Positions 1-11,958 are shown, numbered from the stretch's first letter. The stretch is 11,958 nt of DNA from Hadesarchaea archaeon (GCA_029259185.1 JAPDJF010000007.1:1-11958); one strand, 5' to 3'. The notes: generated from the letters alone by a model not told the origin. Translations and numbers: made by a program.

Positions 1-556
1 TAGTTACACCAAGTCTGAGAGCGATCTTCCTTAACAGTCTGAGGGTCTCAACAAACGATTTCTTTACGGCTTCCTTCTTGGAGGTCCTCACATCGGGAGG
101 GGAAAAGCCCTCCTGAGGTCTCGTCCCCTCGTTGACCAGCCTGCCGTAGAGGAACCCGATTCCTATCGACAGCATGCTCCCCACGAAGGAAAATGCCACG
201 TATTCAATCGCGAGAGAGAAACCCAGAGCGGGTACGGCCACCGGCAGGTAATACCGGAGGAGGGTTCCTATCCTCCTCGACGCTGAGGATATGAGTACGG
301 TGGTGATGGCTTCTGACTCACTAACACACCCTTTGTCTATCAAGGAAGCGAGTGTTGAGTGTGCGGCCGTTCCATCAAGCATAAATACAGCCGGAACCAC
401 GGTGGCCTCGTTCGGAATCTTGGCGACCTTCGCCAGTGGTATCAGAGGTCTGGTGAGGTGTTTTATCAGTCCCAACTCCATTACGACATTTGCGAGAAAA
501 ATACCGATAAATATGAAAACGATGAGCCTGAGATAAAGTACCGCGAAATAGATCAT
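1..556 (-). CDS. Gate/nucleoside-recognition-domain-type polytopic membrane protein, 3' end off the left edge; paralog of 9411..10337
   Basis: Absent from the ORF track because no stop falls in the window. Manual translation from ATG 556 is open to base 1: MIYFAVLYLRLIVFIFIGIFLANVVMELGLIKHLTRPLIPLAKVAKIPNEATVVPAVFMLDGTAAHSTLASLIDKG...RYYLPVAVPALG...IGFLYGR. It aligns by eye with 9411..10337 (GVLLANFIIEVGL, MDGRAGHSIVSSL, KFYMPVVLAALG, IGILYGR). It starts 17 nt after the ATPase stop, and an in-frame TGA at 571-569 bounds the start. The family label is from recall, not a search. Confidence 0.8.
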   Translation of the reverse strand, partial: MIYFAVLYLRLIVFIFIGIFLANVVMELGLIKHLTRPLIPLAKVAKIPNEATVVPAVFMLDGTAAHSTLASLIDKGCVSESEAITTVLISSASRRIGTLLRYYLPVAVPALGFSLAIEYVAFSFVGSMLSIGIGFLYGRLVNEGTRPQEGFSPPDVRTSKKEAVKKSFVETLRLLRKIALRLGVT

Positions 557-573
557 TCGATCCCCGGTTCATC

Positions 574-1347
574 TTAGCTCTCTAGGGGCTCTACGGGGGT
601 CACCAGCGGATAACGGAAAGTATGGTGGATCACGGCTCTCACACCATAAACGAGCTTCATGTTTTTGGGCGTGATCACCTCCTTCGGTTTTCCCATCCCG
701 ATCACCCTTCCCTCTTTGAGCATGACTATTTTGTCAGAGAACCGTGATGCCAGGTTCACATCGTGCATGGCCACGATCGCAGTGACTCCGTGCCTCGTCA
801 AGGTTCTCACGATCTGCATGATCTCCAGCTGGTGTCGCAGGTCTAGGTTGGAGGTGGGTTCATCAAGAAGCATTATCTCGGGGTCTTGAGCTATCGCAGT
901 AGCGATGCGGACTTTCTGAGCTTCTCCCCCGCTGAGCTCGGTGAAGTACCTTGTAGCTAAGTGTTCGATTTTCAAAAGTTTCAGTGCATCGGTCACTTTC
1001 TTAAGATCCTCTCGATCGGGGGTCCAGCTCATGTACGGTTTCCTCCCGAGGAGCGTGATTTCGAACACCGTGAGGGGGAGAGGTCTTCCACCCTGCTGCT
1101 GGAAATAGCTCATCATCCTAGCTATTTCCCTCCTCCCGATTCTGGTGTTCTCCCTTCCATCTATCATCACGACACCCCTATGAGGCCGGAGAATCCCGTT
1201 TATGCACTTCAGTAGTGTACTTTTTCCTGAACCGTTGGGGCCTAGGAGGGTTAGTATTTCTGAGTCTCCCACCGAGAGGGTGACATCTCTCAAGGCGGGA
1301 ATGCTTCGGTAGTCGAAGCTCACCCCCTTTATCTCTAGGGTCACCAA
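574..1347 (-). CDS. ABC transporter ATP-binding subunit, iron-chelate/cobalamin (FepC/BtuD/HmuV) type
   Basis: Walker A GPNGSGKS, signature LSGGE, Walker B MLLDEPTSNLD, H-loop MHD. The start (TTG 1347 or GTG 1344) overlaps the permease TGA and is preceded by GGAGG. Confidence 0.95.
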   Translation of the reverse strand: MVTLEIKGVSFDYRSIPALRDVTLSVGDSEILTLLGPNGSGKSTLLKCINGILRPHRGVVMIDGRENTRIGRREIARMMSYFQQQGGRPLPLTVFEITLLGRKPYMSWTPDREDLKKVTDALKLLKIEHLATRYFTELSGGEAQKVRIATAIAQDPEIMLLDEPTSNLDLRHQLEIMQIVRTLTRHGVTAIVAMHDVNLASRFSDKIVMLKEGRVIGMGKPKEVITPKNMKLVYGVRAVIHHTFRYPLVTPVEPLES

Positions 1348-2438
1348 TATTCTCTCCTCCTTTTCACGAGCAAGTAGATGAAAAGCGGGATTCCGGTGAA
1401 GGATGTGATTGCCCCAATCGGAAGAACCACAGGGCTCATGATCGTTCTGGAGATGATCTCGGCAGCCACCAACAGAACAGCACCTGCCATGATTGAAGAA
1501 GGTATCAGGAACCTGTGGTCACCTCCTACGACCATGCGGGCGATATGCGGAGCGACGAGCCCCACGAAGCCAATAGTTCCAGTAAAACATATTATGGAAG
1601 CGGTGATGAAAGATGCGAGGATTAAGAGGAGTGACCTCACCCTTTCGACCTTCACTCCTAGGCTCTCCGCCGTCTCGTCCCCGATACTCATAGCGTTCAA
1701 ATCCCAAGAGTACTTCCAGAGAACCGGGAAGACACAGAACACGCTAGCCGTCATTATACCTATTTGGGTCCAGCCTACCTTGTCTAGGCTTCCCATGAGC
1801 CAGTATACCACTTGAGCAACAGCGTTCTCGGTGCTGAAATACTCGAGGAGGGAGAGCATGGAGGAAAAGAGATAAGCTACGGCTATTCCCGCCAAGATGA
1901 GAGTCTCCGGTGTCACCCTCGTGAGTCTTGCTAAGGTGTAAATCAGCAAAACCCCCACTAGCGTCCAAGCGAATGCACTGACTATTACCAACGTGCTCCC
2001 GGTTATTCCCTTGTAACCGATGAGTCCAGAGTAGCCCACTATCCCAGCACCTCCGGTTATCGCCAGTGCAGCCCCAAATCCTGCAGCGGAGGCTATTCCG
2101 AGGGTGTATGGGCTGGCTAGAGGATTACGCAGGATCGCTTGGAAGATAACACCCGCGAGCGCGAGTCCCACGCCTCCAACGACGGCAGCGGCCATGCGCG
2201 GCAGTCTGATGTTCCACACGATAACCCTCGCTACCTCAGATACATCCACATTCGGAATGAAACGGGAGAAAAGTGCGAGGTATGCGTCAGAGATCCCCAG
2301 GCTGGATGGCCCTATTGAGATGCCTATTCCAACCAAGAGGAGCAAGATCACAAAGAGTGAGACGATGAAAAGGATCTTCTTGGCCGTAAGAGTCTGGTAG
2401 AATTCGGGAACACCACCTACTCTCCGTTTTGAAACCAC
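1341..2438 (-). CDS. ABC transporter permease, FecCD/BtuC family
   Basis: Motifs IRLPR, LRNPLASPYTLGIASAA, LILAGIA, GDETAESLGV, GTIGFVGLVAPHIAR and LPIGAITSFTGIP. Start moved from 2495 to GTG 2438 (GAGGG 8 nt upstream). TTG 2456, overlapping the upstream TGA, is an alternative. Confidence 0.93.
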   Translation of the reverse strand: MVSKRRVGGVPEFYQTLTAKKILFIVSLFVILLLLVGIGISIGPSSLGISDAYLALFSRFIPNVDVSEVARVIVWNIRLPRMAAAVVGGVGLALAGVIFQAILRNPLASPYTLGIASAAGFGAALAITGGAGIVGYSGLIGYKGITGSTLVIVSAFAWTLVGVLLIYTLARLTRVTPETLILAGIAVAYLFSSMLSLLEYFSTENAVAQVVYWLMGSLDKVGWTQIGIMTASVFCVFPVLWKYSWDLNAMSIGDETAESLGVKVERVRSLLLILASFITASIICFTGTIGFVGLVAPHIARMVVGGDHRFLIPSSIMAGAVLLVAAEIISRTIMSPVVLPIGAITSFTGIPLFIYLLVKRRREYW

Positions 2439-2452
2439 ACTTAGAACCCTCT

Positions 2453-3538
2453 TCAATCCTTCCAAGGTTGAGGTGTGGTCGGGTATACCCAACACCAGTT
2501 CTCAGAATATCTAACGTTCAGGAAGTTCTCGAAATAGCATCTCTGGACCTCCGTTGGATTCAAATTCTCGAAGAGTTCGGGATGGAAGAATTTGGCATAC
2601 CAGAGGGCACCTATTATCCCTTTAGGACCAGTCGCTATGTCAGGATCCACAGCATACACGGCACCGCTCTTCACGGCTTTTACGGTTTGCAGTTCATCCC
2701 GAGCTAATATCCGCTCTCGAGTCTCCCGTAAACAAAACTCGTTGTCCTTGCTCCTTGAATAGGAAGCTACTTTAACGATCACATCCGGGTTCTTCTCCAC
2801 TACCCATTCAGGGTCAACGGTGACATACGCACTAGAACTCAAAAGGGCCGCGATATTGTTTCCCCCACCTATCTCGATTCCCCTGTTCCACCATCCTTGG
2901 TTTGCCGCCGTGGTGGTTTTCCAAGTTGTCCAACTCTCGAAATAGACATCCGGTATCTCCTCAGGGCCCAGTTTCCCCACCCGGTTCTCAAGCATGTTTA
3001 GATATCCCTCCCAGAATTCCCAGAGTTTTCTCGCTTCCTCCTCCCTCCCGTAGATCCTTCCCAACACCATTATCTCGCTCCTGAATTTGTCCGGTTTGTA
3101 GCCATCGATGATAACGGGCTCTATCCCGGCGGGTTTAAGGTGTTGTTCAAGCTCTTCCACCCCTGGCCATCGCTGGTAGGCTATAACGATATCGGGTTGG
3201 AGTTCGATGATTTTTTCATAGTTGGGCGAGAAACAGCTTCCCACCACTTCTTTCTTGCTCAGCACGGGAAAGAGCCACGTATCTTGTGCCATGTATTTGC
3301 TCACACCCACGATCAGGTTCAGGTCTACCCCTATTGCCTTCATAAGTTCTGCGGCATCACCGTGGAGAACCACGGTTTTTGGTTGGTAGGGGATCTCTAT
3401 GAGTCTCCCGGCGGAATCCACAATCTCCACAGTTTCTTTGACTCCCGGTCGCGTGACGGTTGTGGTGAGAAAGGTGGCCAATCCTCCCGCGACGAGAGCT
3501 GTTAGGACTATCGCAACCACTAGCTTTCCCAGCGCCAT
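2453..3538 (-). CDS. ABC transporter substrate-binding protein, BtuF/FecB/HmuT-like (helical-backbone) family, membrane-anchored
   Basis: From ATG 3538: hydrophobic N-terminal anchor MALGKLVVAIVLTALVAGGLATF, then VDSAGRLIEIP, PNYEKIIELQPDIVI, VDPEWVVEKNPDVIV, VKAVKSGAVY and AKFFHPELF. 361 aa. The track's extension to 3727 overlaps the divergent gene and is rejected. Confidence 0.92.
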   Translation of the reverse strand: MALGKLVVAIVLTALVAGGLATFLTTTVTRPGVKETVEIVDSAGRLIEIPYQPKTVVLHGDAAELMKAIGVDLNLIVGVSKYMAQDTWLFPVLSKKEVVGSCFSPNYEKIIELQPDIVIAYQRWPGVEELEQHLKPAGIEPVIIDGYKPDKFRSEIMVLGRIYGREEEARKLWEFWEGYLNMLENRVGKLGPEEIPDVYFESWTTWKTTTAANQGWWNRGIEIGGGNNIAALLSSSAYVTVDPEWVVEKNPDVIVKVASYSRSKDNEFCLRETRERILARDELQTVKAVKSGAVYAVDPDIATGPKGIIGALWYAKFFHPELFENLNPTEVQRCYFENFLNVRYSENWCWVYPTTPQPWKD

Positions 3539-3546
3539 CTCAGAAC

Positions 3547-3563
3547 CGGAAGTATTATTAAAA
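3547..3563 (+). promoter_or_regulatory. Candidate archaeal BRE + TATA box for the chelatase operon (probably leaderless)
   Basis: CGGAAGTATTATTAAAA. The TTATTAAA element at 3555-3562 ends about 22 nt before ATG 3585, which has no SD. Confidence 0.5.
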
Positions 3564-3581
3564 CAGAAGTATTTAATACTT
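3550..3581. promoter_or_regulatory. Inverted-repeat operator AAGTATTA-N16-TAATACTT, NikR-like
   Basis: Perfect 8-bp arms at 3550-3557 and 3574-3581 with a 16-nt AT-rich spacer. The core GTATTA-N16-TAATAC differs by one base per half-site from the E. coli NikR operator GTATGA-N16-TCATAC. It lies in the only divergent spacer of the window. Confidence 0.72.
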
Positions 3582-3584
3582 TCG
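3570..3584 (-). promoter_or_regulatory. Candidate archaeal BRE + TATA box for the ABC operon
   Basis: The minus strand reads CGAAAG-TATTAAATA, ending about 31 nt before ATG 3538. This fits a purine-rich BRE plus TATA and a very short leader. Confidence 0.6.
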
Positions 3585-6020
3585 ATGAATATTTCAAACA
3601 AAAGTAATACTGCTCTTAGGCTCTCCTTCATAATAGGGTATGGTGCCTCGGCTCTCCCAAAGCTTGCGAAGGTGGTGGAAGAAGAGACGGTGGAACATGG
3701 CTTTGAGGGTCTGGTCATAAGCGACACGACATACGAACATCATAGGAACTTCGTAGCCTCTAGTGGGGGAGTGTTTATCTATTCTCACGCTCTTCCCATC
3801 GGAATCGAGGAGGATCTACGGAACTCGAGGATAGTAGTCTCGGTCAGTCGTCTCCATGCGCATCTCTCCAAAGGGCCGAAGGAGGTGCTCAGGAAGGCGG
3901 CGGTTTTGTTCGCTGTTGGAGGGGATAAAAATTTCAGAGAACTCATTCATCTCATGCTTCGAAGCCTTGGTCGTGACGTGGAGGTCGGTGAGGTGGAAGA
4001 AATTCCTTGGGATGGAATATACCACCCGAGGATGGGGATGTTCAAGACAGTTGAGGAGTATCTTGAGAAATATCCCCATAAGAATAAACCCTTGGTGGGC
4101 CTCATCTTCCACCGAACTTACATGCTGTATGGGAACATGGCCCATGTGGAATCTGTAATCGAAAAACTTGAGGAAAAGGGTCTGGGGGTCTTGCCCGTGT
4201 TTACCTACGGACACACGGATCCGATTCTGGGCACACCATCGAAAGAGGACTCGATCGAGAAATTCTTCTTCTCGAGCAAGAAGCCCTTAGTGGAGGCTGT
4301 GGTGAACCTGACGATGTTCTTCCTTTTAGATCATGGAAATTGGGTTGCAGACAGTTCGGTGGGATTCAGGGAAGTTCTGGGGGTGGAGAAGCTCAAAAAG
4401 CTCAATGTGCCGATACTTCAGCCCACATTCTCTTTTTATGAGAGAGTAGATGAATGGATCGAGGACCCGCGAGGGGTTGATTATCTCAGCCAAGTGTACA
4501 CCGTTATCATGCCAGAGGTAGATGGTTTGATAGAACCCATTTACCTAGCGGGTTCGAAAATGGATTCCCAAGGGGTTAGTCTTTACGAGAGCTATCCTCC
4601 ACACGCGGAGTATGTGGCAGGGAGGGTTAAGAAATGGATTGAACTGAGGAGGAAGCCCCCCTCGGAGCGGAAGGTAGCGATAGTCCTCATCAATCCTCCC
4701 TGTAAGGGTCTTGAGGCTAGTGTGGGTGTGGGACTCGGTTTGGATGTTCCGGAGAGTGTTACCCGGTTACTATCTAAATTACGCGAGTTCGGTTATACGG
4801 TGGGGCAAGATTTGCCGCGGAGCGGGAAAGAACTGGTCGAGCTAATCTTGAACAGAAAGGCCATAAGTGAGTTCAGGTGGACGTCGGTAGAGGAAATAGT
4901 GGGAAAGGGTGGGGCGGCAGCTTTCGTTGATCGTGATACTTACTTGAAGTGGTTTGAGGAGCTCCCGAGTGGGGTACAGAAGAAAATGATTGAGGATTGG
5001 GGACATCCGGTGGATGTCTTGTCCGGAAGAGTTAGGAGGGAGCTAGTTGGAATGGTGTACGAGGGAAAATTCGTGATCCCTGGTCTGGTTTTTGGAAACG
5101 TGTTCTTAACCCCTCAGCCTAAGTTCGGGTGCGCTGGGTCCCGGTGCGATGGAGAGGTGTGCAGGATACTCCATGACCCCACCGTGACCCCTCCCCACCA
5201 ATGGCTCGCGGTTTATCGCTGGATCACTAGGGTGTTCGGAGCGGATGTGATCATCCACTTCGGGACTCACGGGTACTTGGAGTTCAGACCGGGTAAGGGA
5301 GTGGGACTCTCTCCCTCCTGCTGGCCCGAGATAACGCTGGATGATGTGCCCCACCTCTACGTCTACGTTGTTTCCAACCCGATGGAAGGGGTCATAGCGA
5401 AAAGGAGGGGATATGCAACGTTGGTCGATCACATGTATCCCCCGATGGCCATGGCTGAGGTGCTTGAGGAGGTGGAGGACCTCTTGGCCCAGTACTCTAA
5501 GGCCAAGCAGCTCGGAGAATTCGAACGAGCCCACGTGATCTACGAAAAACTGCTGGAGAAAGCGAAGGAAAATAACATTCCAATCGGACAGGGGGATCCG
5601 AGTGAAGTGGTGGAGGGGATACACAGGTACATGGAAGGTGTGAGAAATACTCAGATAGATATGGGATTACACGTCTTTGGGTATCCTCCAACCGATGATG
5701 GAAAACTCGCCGAGTACGCCGCCACCGCTATGGCGTTCGACTCACCCACGGGTCCCTCGATCAGGAGGGTCTTGGCCGAACGCCTAGGGTTGGATTATGA
5801 TGAGTTGAGATCGAAGCCGAGCGAAGTGAGCGCGTTCGGATTGACGAATTCGGAGCTGATTCAAACCCTCCACCGAATCGCTGTGAGTGTGCTCAAACGA
5901 TCTCTAAGGTCCGGACTCACGAGTTCCGAACTTCATGAACGCACGCTAGTGGATTACATCGACGAGGAACTGAAAAGAGCGTTTGGAGTGGGTTCGAATG
6001 CTGGAGCTGGAGAAGGTTGA
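3585..6020 (+). CDS. cobN: CobN/ChlH-family chelatase large subunit, N-terminal part (811 aa)
   Basis: Family motifs VIMPEVDGLIEP, WIELRRKPPSERKVAIVL, GLDVPESV, GLVFGNVFLTPQP, HDPTVTPPHQW, IHFGTHGYLEFRPGK, NPMEGVIAKRRG and GLHVFG. Start placed at ATG 3585 rather than 3399. The symbol marks the family only; metal specificity is not established. Confidence 0.92.
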   Translation: MNISNKSNTALRLSFIIGYGASALPKLAKVVEEETVEHGFEGLVISDTTYEHHRNFVASSGGVFIYSHALPIGIEEDLRNSRIVVSVSRLHAHLSKGPKEVLRKAAVLFAVGGDKNFRELIHLMLRSLGRDVEVGEVEEIPWDGIYHPRMGMFKTVEEYLEKYPHKNKPLVGLIFHRTYMLYGNMAHVESVIEKLEEKGLGVLPVFTYGHTDPILGTPSKEDSIEKFFFSSKKPLVEAVVNLTMFFLLDHGNWVADSSVGFREVLGVEKLKKLNVPILQPTFSFYERVDEWIEDPRGVDYLSQVYTVIMPEVDGLIEPIYLAGSKMDSQGVSLYESYPPHAEYVAGRVKKWIELRRKPPSERKVAIVLINPPCKGLEASVGVGLGLDVPESVTRLLSKLREFGYTVGQDLPRSGKELVELILNRKAISEFRWTSVEEIVGKGGAAAFVDRDTYLKWFEELPSGVQKKMIEDWGHPVDVLSGRVRRELVGMVYEGKFVIPGLVFGNVFLTPQPKFGCAGSRCDGEVCRILHDPTVTPPHQWLAVYRWITRVFGADVIIHFGTHGYLEFRPGKGVGLSPSCWPEITLDDVPHLYVYVVSNPMEGVIAKRRGYATLVDHMYPPMAMAEVLEEVEDLLAQYSKAKQLGEFERAHVIYEKLLEKAKENNIPIGQGDPSEVVEGIHRYMEGVRNTQIDMGLHVFGYPPTDDGKLAEYAATAMAFDSPTGPSIRRVLAERLGLDYDELRSKPSEVSAFGLTNSELIQTLHRIAVSVLKRSLRSGLTSSELHERTLVDYIDEELKRAFGVGSNAGAGEG
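5985..5992 (+). promoter_or_regulatory. Shine-Dalgarno-like site for the second cobN-like gene
   Basis: GGAGTGGG, with GGAGTG ending 7 nt before ATG 5998. Confidence 0.55.
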
Positions 6021-7503
6021 ACGTGAGAGACTCCTGAATCCGTTCAGGAGGGCATTGAACATGATTAAAAGGATAAAGAAGTGCGAGAAGGAAGTGGGGA
6101 ATTTCCTCGTTGGGTTGGGGGGAGGATTCATAGAACCCGGGGCATCGGGATCCGTGACTAGGGGAAAGATCGAGGTCTTGCCTACCGGTCGGAACTTCTA
6201 TGCGATAGATCCCACGACGATACCGACCCCATCGGCGTGGAAGATCGGAGCCGAGACGGCCGACAAACTCGTCAAGTATTACCTCGAGAAGCATGGTAGA
6301 TATCCGGAAAGTGTGGGGCAAGTGCTCTGGAGCATAGATGGCTACAAAGCGGACGGTGAACAGCTCGCTCAGATACTCTGGTTGTTCGGGACAAGGCCAA
6401 TTTGGGATCCAACGGGGTTCGTGAGGGGGATAGAGGTTATATCGTTGGAGGAGCTCGGAAGACCCAGGATAGATAGTGTGGTCAGGATGAGCGGAATAAT
6501 GAGAGATACACTGCCGAATTATATCTATCTGATAGATGAGGCCGTGTCCAAAGTCGTGGTCCTAGATGAACCACTCGATAGGAACTACGTGCGAAAGCAC
6601 TACATGGAGCACTTGGCGAAGCTCGTCGAACTGGGGAAAAAAGCGGGAGAGGCCGAGAGGTCTGCGAGGTGCAGGGTGTATTGTAGCCCTCCGGGAACCT
6701 ATGGAACAGGCGTGAACTTAGCCGTTGAGGCATCGGCTTGGAGAAGTGATGAAGATCTGGCGAAGACTTGGATCCAGTGGGGGGGATATGCGTACACCAA
6801 GGACGTGTTTGGGAAACAGGATCTGGAGGGTTTCGCCTTGAACGTCAAGCGTGTCGATGTGGTTACGCGACAGCACGTAAGCGACGAGCACGACATCTTC
6901 AACTGCTGCTGTTATTACGGGTACCACGGAGGATTCTACAACACGGTCAAAAAACTGAGCGGGAGGAAAGACATCGAGGTAGTGGTGGTGGACACGAAAG
7001 ACGTTTCCTTCACGCACGTGAGGGAGATGAAGGAGGAGATAGAGAGGGTCGCGAGGGTGAAGCTCCTGAATCCGGTGTGGATATCGGAGATGAAGAAGCA
7101 CGGGTATAGGGGAGCCAACGAATTCTCAAAGAAGATACTCCATCTCTACGGCTGGTCCTCCACCACGAGGCTCGTGGAGAAGTGGATCTTCGACTCGGTA
7201 GCTGAGACGTATGTGCTGGACGAGGAGATGAGGCGGTGGTTGGAGGAGAACAACGTGTGGGCACTTGAGGAAATAGCTAGGAGACTCATCGAGGCTGCGG
7301 AGAGGGGATTGTGGAAACCCTCGGAGGAGGTCTTGGAAAGGCTTAAGGGCATCTACGGCGAGGTGGAGGGACTACTTGAAGAATCGGTTACTGGGGAGAT
7401 CCAAGGTGGCACGATAAATGTTTACACAGCAGAGGAGGTGGATAACTGGCAGATAAAAGCATCAGAGGTGAGGAGGATATGGGAGGAGCTGAGAGAAAGA
7501 TAA
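5998..7503 (+). CDS. cobN: CobN/ChlH-family chelatase large subunit, C-terminal part (501 aa)
   Basis: Motifs [78 protein letters not shown] and [11 protein letters not shown]. These continue the CobN sequence from where 3585..6020 ends. ATG 5998 is preferred over TTG 5983 because of the SD. Confidence 0.92.
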
Positions 7504-9392
7504 TCTTTCCATTCACAGCGATTGTGGGTCAAGAAAGGGCGAAGCTTGCTCTTCTTTGCTCGGCGGTAAATCCGTCGATAGGAGGGGTTCTCCTGAGCGG
7601 GGACAAGGGAACGGGAAAATCGACGCTCGTAAGGGCGCTAGCGGACCTGTTGCCCGAGATCGAGGTCGTTGCTGATTGTCCGTTCAGTTGTGGTCCCAGT
7701 CCGCTCGAGATGTGTGACTCCTGCTATATGAGGTTTCGGAGTGGAGAAGGGATGAACTTGGTCAAGAGAAAGATGAGGGTGGTTGATTTGCCTCTGAGCA
7801 TAACCGTCGATAGGCTTGTGGGAACCTTAGACATCAAGAGGGCGATGAAAGAGGGTGTGAGGGCCCTACACCCTGGATTGCTTGCTGAGGCCAACAGGAA
7901 CATTCTCTACATAGATGAGGTCAACTTGTTGGAAGACTACGTTGCGGATGTGTTACTGGATTCGGCGGCTATGGGATGGAACATCGTGGAGAGGGAAGGA
8001 ATCTCCGTCAGACATCCAGCTAGGTTCATCTTAGTTGGGAGCATGAATCCAGAAGAAGGGGAACTCAGACCACAGATCCTGGATAGGTTCGGTCTTTATG
8101 TGAGAATAGAGGCACCGGATGAGGTTGATCAGAGAATCGAGGTTGTGAGGAGGGTCGAGGAGTTTCAAGCGGATCCCATCTCTTTCCACGAGAGATATGG
8201 TGGGGAGCAAGAGAAGCTGAGGGAGAGGATAATCAGAGCCCGGAGCATCCTCCCCGGGGTGGAAATTGGAGCCGATTTACTGAAGTTGCTGGCCGAAACG
8301 GTTGCGGGAATGGGAATTAAGACCCACCGGGCCGAGATAATGACGGTTCGGGCTGCTAAGGCCATAGCTGCGCTGGAAGGGAGGAGGAAGGTAAACTTGG
8401 AGGATATGAAGAAAGCTATGGAGTTGGCTCTTCCCCACCGAGTGAAAGAAAAGCCGTTTGAGCAACCTCCTCCTCAGCCACTTTCGATTCCACCCAAAGC
8501 TGGAGGTGGGGGAGGAGATCATGGGAAGAAAAACGAGGGCAACGAGGGAGAGAACAAAAGAGGAGAAACATCGTCGTTAACGGGTAATGCTGAACGAACC
8601 TATGAGCCAAGTCATGCCGATCTCTTCCCTCTACCCAAGCGGAGGAATCCAGAGGCGGTCGAAAGGAGGAGTCAGGGGAGGGTTTCCAAGGAGGAGAAGA
8701 GAACGATGGTGGGGTTCCCCCAAGGGGTACCTATCTCATACCTTCCGCTACAAGAAAGCGAGCAATTCCGTGATGTGGATCTCACCGCAACCATCGTGGC
8801 AGCTGTTTCAAGACCCCGAGACAGGTTCGGGGTGGAGGAGGATGATGTAAGGGTGAGGATCAGGAAAACGAGGGCTCCTAAGTTAACAGTTTTGCTTTTG
8901 GATTCGAGCGGGAGTATGAGTATAATGAAGCGGATAAGCATAGCTAAAGGTATTGCGCTCAAGCAGATTGAAAATTCTTATGTCGGGAGAAACTACATGG
9001 CCTTGATAGCCTTCAGGGGGCGAGAGGCTCAAGTACTCGTCCCTCCCACCCGGAGGTATGAGGAGGTGCTGCGGAAGCTGAGAGAACTCCCAACTGGGGG
9101 AAAAACCCCTCTCTCGTCCGCTCTCCAAGAGTTATTATTTTTGTCCAAGAACTTCAGGAGGAAGAACAAGGGGTCTGTGGTTGAGGGAATACTCATAACG
9201 GATGGAAAAGCCAACGTTCCCCTGCGAGGACCCTCCGTGAGAGGGGAAGTCTTGGCCCTCGCTAGGAGTACCAAGAAATCCGGTATAAGGATGGAAATTT
9301 ACGACACGAGACCTCATGCGCACATAGATCCCGCACCCTCTCTCATAGAACCGTTGCAAAGCGTTTTGGGTGCACCCGTGCATGTGTACTGA
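7479..9392 (+). CDS. chlD: Chelatase AAA+ subunit, ChlI-like ATPase domain + linker + vWA domain (ChlD/BchD architecture)
   Basis: FPFTAIVGQ, Walker [26 protein letters not shown], Walker [26 protein letters not shown], a Pro/Gly/charged linker, then MIDAS DSSGSM, TGGKTPL and ITDGKAN. SD GAGGTGA at 7465-7471. Overlaps the upstream gene by 25 nt. Confidence 0.92.
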
Positions 9393-9410
9393 GGGATCTT
9401 CACGGAACTC

Positions 9411-10337
9411 GTGGCTCACTACCTCCGCTCTACTTTGCTTGTCGTTGTTTCGACGTTTTTCGGGGTTCTTCTCGCAAACTTCATCATAGAGGTCGGACTC
9501 GCGGGCAGGGTTGGTGCCCCCTTAAACCCCTTGATGGGTGTGGCTGGGCTCCCGAGAGAACTTTCGATCGCAGCCCTTATAGGCACCATGGATGGAAGGG
9601 CGGGTCACTCGATCGTTTCCTCTTTACGGAGGAAGAACGAGATAGGTGATGAGGCGGTCATAGCGTATAACCTCACCACGATGCCGCTCGCGTTTATCTC
9701 CATACTGCTCAAATTTTACATGCCAGTTGTGCTAGCGGCATTAGGGTTGGTGGCCGGCGGTGCATTCCTCATTCTGACTTTCATCTCAAGTTTGATCGGG
9801 ATGTTCATAGGCATCCTCTATGGAAGACGGAAACTCAGCGATGGAAAACGGCTACGGTTGAAGCAGAGGACTGGGAAGAAATCTAGGGGGGAGGCTTTCA
9901 GAAGTTCTTTTTCAAGAGCGGTTGGGATGACGAAATACGTGTTCAAACGTTACATCGTAGTCATCCTTTTGCTTTTGGTTCTCACCCGCACCGGCTTCTT
10001 CGATTGGATAGCCAAAGCGATCCAGGGGCTAACCGTGACGGGGTTGTCTCCCCACTCATTGGTGGCGCTCTCAACTTGTGCTGTGAGCCCTATCGCTGGC
10101 ATATTCATGGTCGGGGACATGCTGAGAGGTGGACTGGTGGGGATACGGGAGACCCTTCTGGTTCTCATCATCGGCAGGTTGCTTTTCACACTAGCGTTCG
10201 AGTATCCACGTCATTCATTCCCGTTCTACGTTTCCATGTATCCGGCCAAACTCGCAGCGAAACTGACGTTGACACTCATGCTCACAACGGTGCTGAGTAC
10301 TCCAGTCTTGATATTCATAACGTTAGCTGCATTCTGA
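9411..10337 (+). CDS. Gate/nucleoside-recognition-domain-type polytopic membrane protein
   Basis: 308 aa with two hydrophobic halves separated by a basic loop (RRKLSDGKRLRLKQRTGKKSR). GTG start 18 nt after the chlD stop. Paralog of <1..556. The family label is from recall. Confidence 0.8.
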   Translation: MAHYLRSTLLVVVSTFFGVLLANFIIEVGLAGRVGAPLNPLMGVAGLPRELSIAALIGTMDGRAGHSIVSSLRRKNEIGDEAVIAYNLTTMPLAFISILLKFYMPVVLAALGLVAGGAFLILTFISSLIGMFIGILYGRRKLSDGKRLRLKQRTGKKSRGEAFRSSFSRAVGMTKYVFKRYIVVILLLLVLTRTGFFDWIAKAIQGLTVTGLSPHSLVALSTCAVSPIAGIFMVGDMLRGGLVGIRETLLVLIIGRLLFTLAFEYPRHSFPFYVSMYPAKLAAKLTLTLMLTTVLSTPVLIFITLAAF

Positions 10338-10378
10338 AATACCCGATCACCTGGTACCCAATATCTAATTAACTAGTC

Positions 10379-11038
10379 ATGAGAATCTCAGACGATTGGA
10401 TGGACAGAAAAAGAAAGGATGTTTATGCGATATCAATGAAGTTAGAGTCGGAAGCGAGAGGACTTGAGGCAGAGGGGAATGTGGGCAAGGCTTTGAGGAT
10501 GTGGAGGGATTACACGAAACTCAAACTGGAGAAGGGAAGCTACTTCCTCGCCTCTTACGGTCGGTATGCAGAGGGAAGGGTGCTAGAGAGGATGGGCAAA
10601 CAATCAAAGGCCGCGAGGAAATACGCCGCTGCGGCCGACCTTGCGGAGTCTAAGTGCCAAAACCTTGATCTTGCAGCGTTCTTTCTCCTCGAGTCAGCGC
10701 GATGTTTGGAGAGTGTTTCCAGACTGAGCGACGCCCGTCGGGTCTACGAACGCATGGCTCGAATGTGGATGGAGGTGGGAAATCATTTCAGGGCCGCCGA
10801 TGCATACGAGCGTGCTGTCAGAGTTATCGAGCGGAGCGGTGGGTCTCTAAAAGGATATCATAGGGGTGGGGAGGAGTGGATGAAGTGCTATGAAAAGCAC
10901 TTAGAAAAGGGGGGCATCGAAGACGCGCTCTGGAGCTTGAGAAGGGCTTGGCTCTACTTCGAGCGGGTCGGGGCAAAAGGGCTCGTGAGGAAGGTTAAAA
11001 CCATCCTAGAGCGATCTAATCGGAGTGTTAAGTCATGA
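10379..11038 (+). CDS. Hypothetical alpha-helical repeat protein (TPR/SNAP-like)
   Basis: 219 aa, rich in Ala/Arg/Glu/Tyr, with repeated helix-pair patterns (GKQSKAARKYAAAA, RLSDARRVYERMA, GNHFRAADAYERA, GIEDALWSLRRA). The start may instead be ATG 10400. Confidence 0.7.
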   Translation: MRISDDWMDRKRKDVYAISMKLESEARGLEAEGNVGKALRMWRDYTKLKLEKGSYFLASYGRYAEGRVLERMGKQSKAARKYAAAADLAESKCQNLDLAAFFLLESARCLESVSRLSDARRVYERMARMWMEVGNHFRAADAYERAVRVIERSGGSLKGYHRGGEEWMKCYEKHLEKGGIEDALWSLRRAWLYFERVGAKGLVRKVKTILERSNRSVKS

Positions 11039-11076
11039 GCTGATCCTAGGTTTCACCGTCTACCTTAGAACCTATT

Positions 11077-11262
11077 TCACTTCTCTATCTTTACGAATGC
11101 TTTGTGATTTACGAAATCTATCTTTTCGATCTTCGCACGTATGGTTCGCTCAACTCCGGTAATGTCCTTTACGTGTATCGAGTTCTTCCTCGGGATCAAA
11201 AGTGCTATTTCTTCCATCAGGATTTTTTCCGGATTCACCGAGTACAATGTGAACTCGCACAC
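11077..11262 (-). CDS. cooT: CooT-family nickel-binding protein
   Basis: 61 aa with N-terminal M-C-E (Cys2), ILMEEI, KDITG-ERTI and a C-terminal IEKIDFVNHK carrying His. Size and pattern match CooT, the CO dehydrogenase Ni accessory protein. Confidence 0.85.
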   Translation of the reverse strand: MCEFTLYSVNPEKILMEEIALLIPRKNSIHVKDITGVERTIRAKIEKIDFVNHKAFVKIEK

Positions 11263-11320: not shown

Positions 11321-11770
11321 TCAGTGTTTTTCAGTTTTTCTCCACTTCCAGAGAAGGTATCCGACTGGTAAGGATATCAAGAACAGCCAAACCTCCGGTC
11401 TCAATTCAGCTGTAAATGAAAACTCTCCAGTTTCTCCGAGCCAGAAGTCGAGCCAGTGGGCACCCATGATCAGGAGAAATATCATCCCGAAAATAGCGGA
11501 GAGTATGAATCCCACGAAGATGAATGAGAGTCCCTCTTTTTCTCCACTCCACATCGGTTTTACCCCAGCCAAGTATACGGCTCCGATCACGACCAGTGCG
11601 GATCCACCCAACGCATCTGCGGGGAGCGATGATTTCAAGCCGAGCACATCAATGTTTCCGAAGAGCAGGTGTCCTAGTCCTAGGACGAGACTCATCATCC
11701 CGACCCCGGCGTAGAGGAGTCCGAGCAGAAATGCGTAAACACCGATTACCTTTAGACCAGTCTCTTTCAT
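11321..11770 (-). CDS. Hypothetical membrane protein (about 4 TM helices) coupled to feoB
   Basis: 149 aa with four hydrophobic segments. SD GAGGTGA (11781-11775) includes the feoB stop codon and ends 4 nt before the ATG. Confidence 0.8.
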   Translation of the reverse strand: MKETGLKVIGVYAFLLGLLYAGVGMMSLVLGLGHLLFGNIDVLGLKSSLPADALGGSALVVIGAVYLAGVKPMWSGEKEGLSFIFVGFILSAIFGMIFLLIMGAHWLDFWLGETGEFSFTAELRPEVWLFLISLPVGYLLWKWRKTEKH

Positions 11771-11774
11771 CCCA

Positions 11775-11958
11775 TCACCTCATAAGCGATCCTACTCCTA
11801 CGATCGCCGCTGCCACTGCGTATGCGAGGATTAGTTCGTACACTATGAGAAATGCTACCCACTTCCACGATCCCGTTTCCTGCTTGACTACGCCCACGGT
11901 CGCTAGGCACGGGAGATACACGAGTACAAACGCCATGTATGCGAGCCCGGTTACGGGA
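11775..11958 (-). CDS. feoB: Ferrous iron transporter FeoB, C-terminal 60 aa (5' part outside the window)
   Basis: Not in the ORF track. Manual translation PVTGLAYMAFVLVYLPCLATVGVVKQETGSWKWVAFLIVYELILAYAVAAAIVGVGSLMR* contains the FeoB C-terminal FxLxYxPCxAT...ExGSxKW pattern. TGA at 11777-11775. Confidence 0.9.
   Translation of the reverse strand, partial: PVTGLAYMAFVLVYLPCLATVGVVKQETGSWKWVAFLIVYELILAYAVAAAIVGVGSLMR

Follow-up and report, generated by a model that had tools for sequence, protein, structure and literature searches.

A putative NikR-type operator shared by a chelate importer and a CobN-like chelatase marks a candidate nickel-scavenging module in thermophilic archaea

What does a CobN-like chelatase do in an archaeon with no recognizable B12 pathway, and why is it encoded back to back with a chelate importer? 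The role of many archaeal homologs of CobN, ChlH, and HmuS is an openly stated puzzle: the authors of the HmuS study call the role of the archaeal homologs unclear (PMC12583661), and a 2025 proteome study found a CobN-annotated protein only under nickel limitation and gave no explanation for it (PMC12350162). We approached the question through a contig of the heat-loving Hadesarchaea archaeon (GCA_029259185.1 JAPDJF010000007.1), all 11,958 bases of which make up the window analyzed here; it is contig C30 of the 1.27-Mb genome G000, which consists of 54 contigs and is 94.9% complete. Two divergent operons of the window, one encoding an importer and the other a two-piece CobN-like subunit with a ChlI–ChlD motor, share a control region containing a dyad of the NikR type. 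We propose that they form a nickel-starvation module, in which a tightly bound nickel chelate is imported and an ATP motor frees the metal, and give this reading a probability of roughly 0.45. The more general claim, that an importer under nickel control is paired with a CobN-like processing enzyme, is considerably safer, and we hold it to be likely.

The two operons consist of the following features (window coordinates):

2..556, minus strand: Gate-like membrane protein, cut by the contig end after its first 185 residues; closes the importer operon and is a paralog of 9411-10337
574..1347, minus strand: ABC transporter ATPase (PF00005, 107 bits)
1341..2495, minus strand: FecCD/BtuC-type permease (PF01032, 292.5 bits, match from residue 50)
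2453..3538, minus strand: Peripla_BP_2 substrate-binding protein (91.9 bits), by eye anchored in the membrane at its N terminus
3539..3584, no strand: 46-bp control region common to both divergent operons, start codons fixed by homolog alignment
3552..3579, no strand: putative NikR-type operator GTATTA-N16-TAATAC, a perfect 6-N16-6 dyad
3585..6020, plus strand: CobN-like large subunit, N-terminal part, 811 amino acids (CobN-Mg_chel profile positions 5-665 of 1090, 587 bits)
5983..7503, plus strand: CobN-like large subunit, C-terminal part, 506 amino acids (profile positions 676-1089 of 1090, 581 bits)
7479..9392, plus strand: ChlI–ChlD fusion, 637 residues, AAA+ plus VWA (TIGR02442, 646 bits, below the cut-off of 779)
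9411..10337, plus strand: Gate-like membrane protein, 308 amino acids (Gate profile, below cut-off)

The original prediction, made from the window alone, described two divergent operons with tight or overlapping junctions around a common 46-bp control region with a NikR-like dyad, and this arrangement was confirmed. Neighboring genes overlap by 7, 43, 38, and 25 bases or are separated by gaps of 17, 18, and 41 bases; the 43-base overlap takes GTG at 2495 as the start codon, and the true start of the permease probably lies downstream of it. Only 17 bases separate the ABC ATPase from the Gate-like gene 2-556.

The dyad has the form of a NikR operator, with two inverted half-sites of 6–7 bp of the GTRTNA type spanning 28 bp overall. 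Its layout is that of the Escherichia coli NikR operator GTATGA-N16-TCATAC (PMC7055735), and it is close to the predicted NikR sites GTGTTAC-N13/14-GTAACAC (PMC545781). It appeared in 0 of 200 shuffles and is the sole perfect copy in the 1.27-Mb genome, where a search for the exact dyad with up to one mismatch gave no other convincing site. Judged by eye, both arms run into A/T-rich TATA-like elements, TTATTAAAA (plus strand, 3555-3563) and TATTAAATA (minus strand, 3578-3570), each standing at the right distance from its respective start codon, so that one bound tetramer could shut both promoters.

The arms are identical in G061, a genome of the same family in which the protein is 60% identical, the divergent layout is the same, and the spacer has changed. 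For a wider comparison we used 79 related loci from many archaeal lineages, with homologs of the window genes located by tblastn, and scored 150-base windows upstream of cluster genes against GTRTTAC-N13-15-GTAAYAC with at most two mismatches. Operator-like sites stood before 11 of 46 binding-protein genes, 7 of 66 CobN genes, 1 of 54 ChlID genes, and 1 of 19 Gate-like genes, so that 20 of the 79 loci had one. Of 3000 random windows, 21 qualified; of 166 intergenic promoter windows taken from unrelated genes in the same loci, 3 did, none of them with one mismatch or fewer. When the half-site was permuted, the real order came first among 120 with 12 matches, the mean of the permutations being 1.9. 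Perfect inverted forms were found before the importer of a Heimdallarchaeum genome (GTGTTAC-N13-GTAACAC) and before the CobN gene of a Thermofilaceae metagenome-assembled genome (MAG; GTATTAC-N14-GTAACAC). Upstream of the binding-protein gene, loci L031, L032, and L079 carry the direct repeat GTGTTAC-N14-GTGTTAC, and loci of the Thermococcus type have GTAATAC/ATGTTAC-N14-GTAGCAC.

A regulator to match is encoded in G000, where a 136-residue ORF on contig C2 scores 104.2 bits against NikR_C and contains H81, H92-x-H94, and C100, a spacing that we take to equal that of the E. coli NikR ligands. NikR was likewise found in 46 of 50 other cluster-bearing genomes. The NikR-like dyad noticed in the window is thus supported by the gene for the regulator, by the retention of its arms in G061, and by its recurrence in related loci over promoter controls, and these sequence comparisons support a NikR-type operator as a conserved feature of the cluster and not a chance dyad. 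Elsewhere in G000, a perfect GTGTTAC-N14-GTAACAC dyad (G000:C8:18449-18476; L113:1950-1977) lies 51 bases before the gene of a 451-residue protein with a C-terminal FmdE domain, which is preceded by a second FmdE plus zinc-finger protein; going by this site, the gene is probably a second member of the nickel regulon. Two GTTAC-rich near-dyads at G000:C10:38845-38957 (L114), between an HxlR-like regulator gene and nrdG-nrdD, came up with a wider consensus at two mismatches each and were rejected, as they look like sites of another regulator; the NrdD gene there carries an intein with a LAGLIDADG domain.

What, then, is the enzyme under this control? The CobN-like pair covers PF02514 (CobN-Mg_chel) across its whole length in two adjacent genes. 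The N part carries the motifs NPPCK, CAGSRCDGEVC in the lid loop, HFGTHG, and NPMEG. HFGTHG at 558-563 (with H562), E566, and E601 are conserved in 74–78 of the 79 loci, and the HFG(T/A)HG histidine of the superfamily, the equivalents of ChlH E625 and E660, and the cleft histidine H303 of the C part are all retained. The ChlI–ChlD fusion has an intact Walker A motif, a Pro/Gly/Lys-rich linker, and the VWA sequence DSSGSM. A complete class I chelatase had been predicted for this arm; the large subunit, over 1089 of 1090 profile positions, and the ChlID protein bear this out, and completeness itself is no more than plausible, no search for a separate ChlI gene having been made. The division of the large subunit is a normal form and not damage, as the two parts are split at the same place in 34 of the 64 loci where both could be read and fused in the other 30.

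The pair had also been called Cys-rich. Its total of 11 Cys in 1317 residues does not fit that description, but seven of them sit in conserved motifs specific to the clade, at the active-site lid and cleft. The clade-specific additions are NPPCK and a five-residue insertion giving C-x4-C-x4-C (C516, C521, and C526) in the lid loop, which gates the cleft in ChlH and HmuS (PMC12583661 for HmuS); further, the clade has CCC (C308-310) where CobNs from a B12 context read SDD or SSD. The lid-loop cysteines are kept in 77–78 of 79 loci and the CCC residues in 55–59 of 67, the count for C373 holding by construction because C373 belonged to the search pattern. Soft thiolates in place of hard carboxylates at the metal site, under a nickel sensor, would point to nickel. 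A bacterial CobN-like subfamily (L104–L107, Rhodospirillaceae and relatives) keeps the N-part cysteine motifs and has lost the HFGTHG histidines (reading MGADG), the cleft histidine of the C part, and CCC; because of these losses, its members are probably not working (de)chelatases of the same kind.

The obvious candidate function, cobalt insertion in B12 synthesis, is excluded. The CobN–CobS–CobT or CobN–ChlID cobaltochelatase (PDB 7c6o and 9uk9) resembles the window proteins in fold, in the catalytic His and Glu positions, and in the ATP-driven partner alongside, but differs in the five-residue-shorter lid loop lacking the three Cys and in the SDD at the position of CCC. Every curated CobN and BchH model scores under its cut-off for the CobN-like parts: the best NCBIfam model, NF004646, gives 668.1 and 609.5 bits (a rough sum of 1278) against a cut-off of 1468, and TIGR02257 gives 335.5 and 422.9 against 822. 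A tree built on the C part puts the window and the other archaeal rows, 56 in all, in one clade (SH-aLRT 99), apart from three cobN genes that are located in B12 clusters (S. meliloti, H. volcanii, and Tsukamurella); it has no ChlH or HmuS rows. No match to HemB, CbiX, or CbiC was found in the 94.9%-complete G000, the sole TP_methylase in place of corrin methylases is Dph5 (diphthine synthase), a strong CobB/CobQ-type amidotransferase (GATase_3, CfbB-type) is missing, and for a true NifH-type protein (CfbC) there are only weak P-loop matches. The proposal of a chelatase working outside B12 synthesis is therefore well supported by the missing pathway genes, the separation in the tree, and the CobN scores below cut-off. 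Of the other genes to be checked for in the genome, nikR, a CODH/ACS subunit, and [NiFe]-hydrogenases proved to be present.

Corrinoids could still be salvaged rather than made, with a BtuFCD importer and a cobaltochelatase re-metallating or processing scavenged corrinoids; a corrinoid-salvage chelatase is reportedly the idea behind the name BtuS, coined in 2003. The best NCBIfam names for the large subunit are those of CobN models, the permease resembles BtuC, and cbiB shows that the organism salvages corrinoids. That cbiB gene (317.7 bits), however, lies ~2.5 kb from another, third FecCD permease (G000:C14:19720-24039), in what its gene content suggests is likely a locus for corrinoid salvage and import, so corrinoid import is probably served elsewhere. 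Given that locus and the CCC in place of SDD, a corrinoid cargo is unlikely for the window importer; with the NikR type of the operator, the CobN models under cut-off, the position outside the three B12-context CobNs, and no CobQ/CobB-type amidotransferase, we regard corrinoid salvage as very improbable.

The one proven de-chelatase of the family is HmuS, a CobN-family haem de-chelatase that is encoded with an uptake system, is described as needing no ATP, and depends on the HFG(T/A)HG histidine (PMC12583661). HmuS/BtuS of Bacteroidota, with its hmu uptake operon (PDB 9d26; PMC12583661), and the window are alike in pairing a CobN-family subunit with uptake of an intact chelate in a host unable to make the macrocycle, and the essential histidine is kept here as H562. 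HmuS acts on iron and is membrane-anchored, periplasm-facing, and NADH-dependent, and it uses neither ATP nor a ChlI/ChlD partner (PMC12583661); in the window, the host is archaeal, the control site is a NikR-type operator, and the large subunit has seven clade-specific cysteines and is accompanied by a cytoplasmic AAA+/VWA motor. We saw no hydrophobic N terminus in 3585-6020 by eye and no HmuY/HmuR-like genes in the window. The features specific to HmuS are the head/neck haem ligands Met-79 and His-254 and the motif LSLDHxxEFMGG (PMC12583661); the window protein keeps the cleft His, and its counterpart of the motif reads differently. Among solved structures, the N part is nearest to ChlH (239 bits) and the C part to CobN of M. 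tuberculosis (345 bits), with HmuS the most distant solved relative of both (171 and 215 bits).

A haem-iron harvester like HmuS, importing haem and using the iron removed from it, would suit the feoB fragment that lies adjacent, and the closest solved relatives of the binding protein are iron-type. Against such a harvester stand the distance from HmuS, the ATP motor with no evident anchor, and a control site of NikR and not iron type; nor was feoB adjacency seen in the other loci, which were surveyed through the window genes without FeoB as a query. We find this account hardly plausible at all.

Closer to the N part is Mg-chelatase (ChlH/BchH with ChlI and ChlD; PDB 4zhj), which gives its best solved match and shares the E625/E660 equivalents and a motor of the I–D type. 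The window differs from it in having no chlorophyll pathway, in the fusion of I and D into 637 residues, and in the cysteine motifs, which ChlH is without. The Glu and His residues that insertion enzymes use for catalysis are intact, as is the ATP motor, and the machine might run forward, putting nickel into an imported metal-free macrocycle and being made abundantly under nickel scarcity to compete for the metal; a nickel-chelatase role for CobN-like proteins was once suggested by Thauer's group (PMC3087415). G000 has two mcrA genes and no F430 pathway, so this host needs a nickel corphinoid. McrA, on the other hand, is present in only 6 of the 50 cluster-bearing genomes, and with 44 carriers lacking it, F430 use by the host does not drive the system in general. 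With the window query, no chelatase turned up in two further mcrA-bearing genomes of the host family, G000 has neither a true NifH-type CfbC nor a strong CobB/CfbB-type amidotransferase, and the insertion of nickel in F430 synthesis has already been assigned to CfbA. We think a forward nickel chelatase distinctly unlikely.

The cargo has to be sought through the importer. That one arm encodes an importer of the FecCD/BtuFCD type was borne out by the profile matches: a Peripla_BP_2 binder, a FecCD permease, and an ABC ATPase in a single operon make a type II ABC importer of the FecCD/BtuCD class. None of its proteins reaches an NCBIfam equivalog cut-off, and the models nearest to the ATPase are F420-0, heme, FecE, and corrinoid ATPases, every one below cut-off. 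The closest solved relatives of the binding protein are binders of iron/siderophore type with an unnamed ligand (PDB 9hrj and others, best 75.8 bits), and nickel-binding CeuE-type entries match weakly (PDB 4ino and 4ls3, E 0.005). The known NikR-repressed nickel uptake operons (E. coli nikABCDE and predicted nikMNQO regulons) are alike in having a 28-bp dyad at an uptake promoter and nikR in the genome, and differ in using Nik/Opp or ECF transporters rather than one of FecCD/BtuC class coupled to a class I chelatase homolog.

The operator and the thiolate-lined cleft argue for nickel and say nothing about its organic partner. The cargo could therefore be a nickel complex other than a tetrapyrrole, of amino-acid or metallophore type, with the CobN-like/ChlID machine freeing the nickel or loading it onto proteins in the manner of other AAA+/VWA pairs. 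The Peripla_BP_2 entries named nickel-binding, weak as their match is, fit this account, and so do loci L039, L042, and L072, which have no importer and yet carry an operator before the chelatase genes. But the whole CobN fold is kept (1089 of 1090 positions), including the macrocycle-facing cleft His of HmuS, CobN, and ChlH, and an ATP-driven machine would be superfluous for a complex that is only weakly bound; we consider this account unlikely.

The neighborhood, whose conservation in other genomes the original prediction called for, is conserved across archaeal phyla. Relatives of the CobN-like subunit at 50–63% identity are widespread in thermophilic archaea. Importer genes lie within 6.5 kb in 35 of the 46 loci with at least 4 kb of upstream sequence (26 co-directional and 9 divergent), ChlID is present in 45 of the 48 related loci with room for it, and of the 36 loci with sufficient sequence, 13 have a Gate-like gene nearby. 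Within the host phylum the chelatase is sporadic (3 of 66 genomes), and in the C-part tree the window copy is not sister to that of L041, a Hadesarchaea MAG, which suggests horizontal spread with separate acquisitions within the phylum. The L041 copy is sister to L036, Methanodesulfokora washburnensis (SH-aLRT 100, short branches).

The hosts as a group use nickel and often show no means of making a tetrapyrrole. Genes of the [NiFe]-hydrogenase family occur in 47 of 50 cluster-bearing genomes, and HemB was not found in 33 of the 50 carriers other than G000, a set of genomes not rated for completeness. All four mcrA-bearing genomes of the host family (G000, G061, G062, and G063) are without HemB; these alkyl-CoM-reductase hosts seem to lack the means of making F430 or corrinoids, which they would have to take up. 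A general link with Mcr was rejected: the chelatase is found in 2 of 5 mcrA-bearing and 1 of 61 other genomes of the phylum, and McrA in so few carriers. The idea that the module replaces NikMNQO was likewise dropped, as it fits G000 alone (no CbiM, with one present in 5 of 5 relatives) and is contradicted by 31 of 50 carriers. On this gene content, F430 as a nickel source, rather than as a cofactor of the host, remains a candidate. G000 has a second FecCD permease gene ~11 kb away from one of its mcrA genes (G000:C13:11584-12543), and in two relatives a CbiM/NikM gene lies ~12 kb from mcrA (G062:C1:42614-43225 and G063:C20:12819-13430).

We suggest that the nickel-starvation module would work as follows. 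With nickel sufficient, Ni-NikR on the 28-bp operator would cover both TATA-like elements and keep both operons off; with nickel scarce, both would be transcribed. The anchored binder, the FecCD permease, and the ATPase would then take up, still intact, a chelate that binds its nickel tightly, the leading candidate being a nickel tetrapyrrole or corphinoid, for example F430 or one of its breakdown products. Once the cargo has reached the cytoplasm, the CobN-like subunit, itself in two pieces, would hold the macrocycle in its central cleft, which retains the catalytic His and Glu of class I chelatases and may be lined by the seven clade-specific cysteines. The ChlI–ChlD AAA+/VWA motor would spend ATP to pull the nickel out, the thiolates could pass it on to the maturation of nickel enzymes, and the Gate-like proteins may clear away the ligand once it has lost its metal, or else transport the ion. 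Three elements of this scheme are inferred: that NikR binds the operator, what the cargo is, and which way the reaction runs.

Several observations weigh against the proposed module. Under our crude consensus, 59 of the 79 loci have no good operator site, several of the sites found are direct and not inverted repeats, the best permuted half-site reached 11 matches to the 12 of the real motif, and related loci are not independent samples. Importer genes are missing from 11 of the 46 loci with enough upstream sequence. That the nearest solved relatives of the binding protein are of siderophore/iron type, with the nickel-binding entries only weakly matched, counts in the same direction. CbiM/NikM is present in 31 of the 50 host genomes, which thus have a nickel route besides the module. 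Removing nickel from a corphinoid is chemically hard. The insertion residues of ChlH (the E625/E660 equivalents) are intact and the ATP motor is kept, unlike in the ATP-free de-chelation by HmuS, and these two features fit a forward chelatase equally well.

For archaeal CobN homologs the only experimental link to nickel that we found is in Methanothermobacter marburgensis, where "CobN1," NikR1, and two transporters are reported to appear only under nickel limitation (PMC12350162); the likeness to the window, a CobN-annotated archaeal protein with a NikR homolog and transporters, is one of annotation and nickel response. One of these transporters, MTBMA_c10530, has a locus number next to genes listed earlier as candidate nickel chelatases (PMC3087415). 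In the literature outside supplements and subscription journals, we found no published description of a NikR-controlled CobN-like importer module.

The locus and its relatives give the puzzle of the archaeal homologs a testable form, with a defined operator, a three-protein enzyme with a thiolate-for-carboxylate switch, and a dedicated importer, in hosts many of which cannot supply a tetrapyrrole themselves. If nickel release is true, it would be a new route of nickel acquisition, and ATP-driven demetallation a new type of reaction for class I chelatases, with a bearing on how trace metals limit the metabolism of hydrogen, CO, and alkanes in hot anoxic habitats. A bolder version, which we put forward as tentative and somewhat doubtful, is that no nickel de-chelatase driven by ATP would have preceded this one: anaerobic archaea without tetrapyrrole synthesis would import F430-type nickel corphinoids shed by neighboring methanogens or methane oxidizers and strip the nickel for hydrogenases and CODH, and the same route could supply the intact cofactor to the present host, an F430 auxotroph with alkyl-CoM reductase.

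There remain the accessory and neighboring genes. Two Gate proteins had been predicted; the two that qualify are 9411-10337 and 2-556, which are 33% identical (E 3e-24), and both score under the Pfam Gate cut-off of 29.6 (24.0 and 16.4 bits, the latter for 2-556). Their nearest Atlas clusters are Gate-domain proteins (score 0.96), and in other loci the tblastn matches of the 2-556 protein coincide in position with the Gate matches. The protein at 9411-10337 may offer a path for the ion or export the emptied ligand. The rest of the window holds four genes:

10379..11038, plus strand: TPR/SNAP-like soluble protein by profile search, not Gate
11077..11262, minus strand: CooT, nickel-binding CODH accessory protein, 61 amino acids, beginning M-C-E (52.4 bits, cut-off 27)
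11321-11770, minus strand: multi-pass membrane protein, 149 residues, without a family match, directly downstream of the feoB fragment
11775..11957, minus strand: FeoB-like gene, C-terminal end, 60 residues, cut by the contig end (30.4 bits, E 1.1e-7, profile positions 664-714 of 772)

Nothing corresponding to the TPR/SNAP-like gene stands at the equivalent position in the same-family genome, tblastn gave no match to it among the 79 related loci, and its product probably does not belong to the conserved system. CooT, noted as adjacent from the start, is clearly present, yet it is not a conserved neighbor of the cluster, with no match in the 79 loci at E 1e-5. The adjacent feoB also proved real, if only as the 60-residue C-terminal fragment at the contig end.

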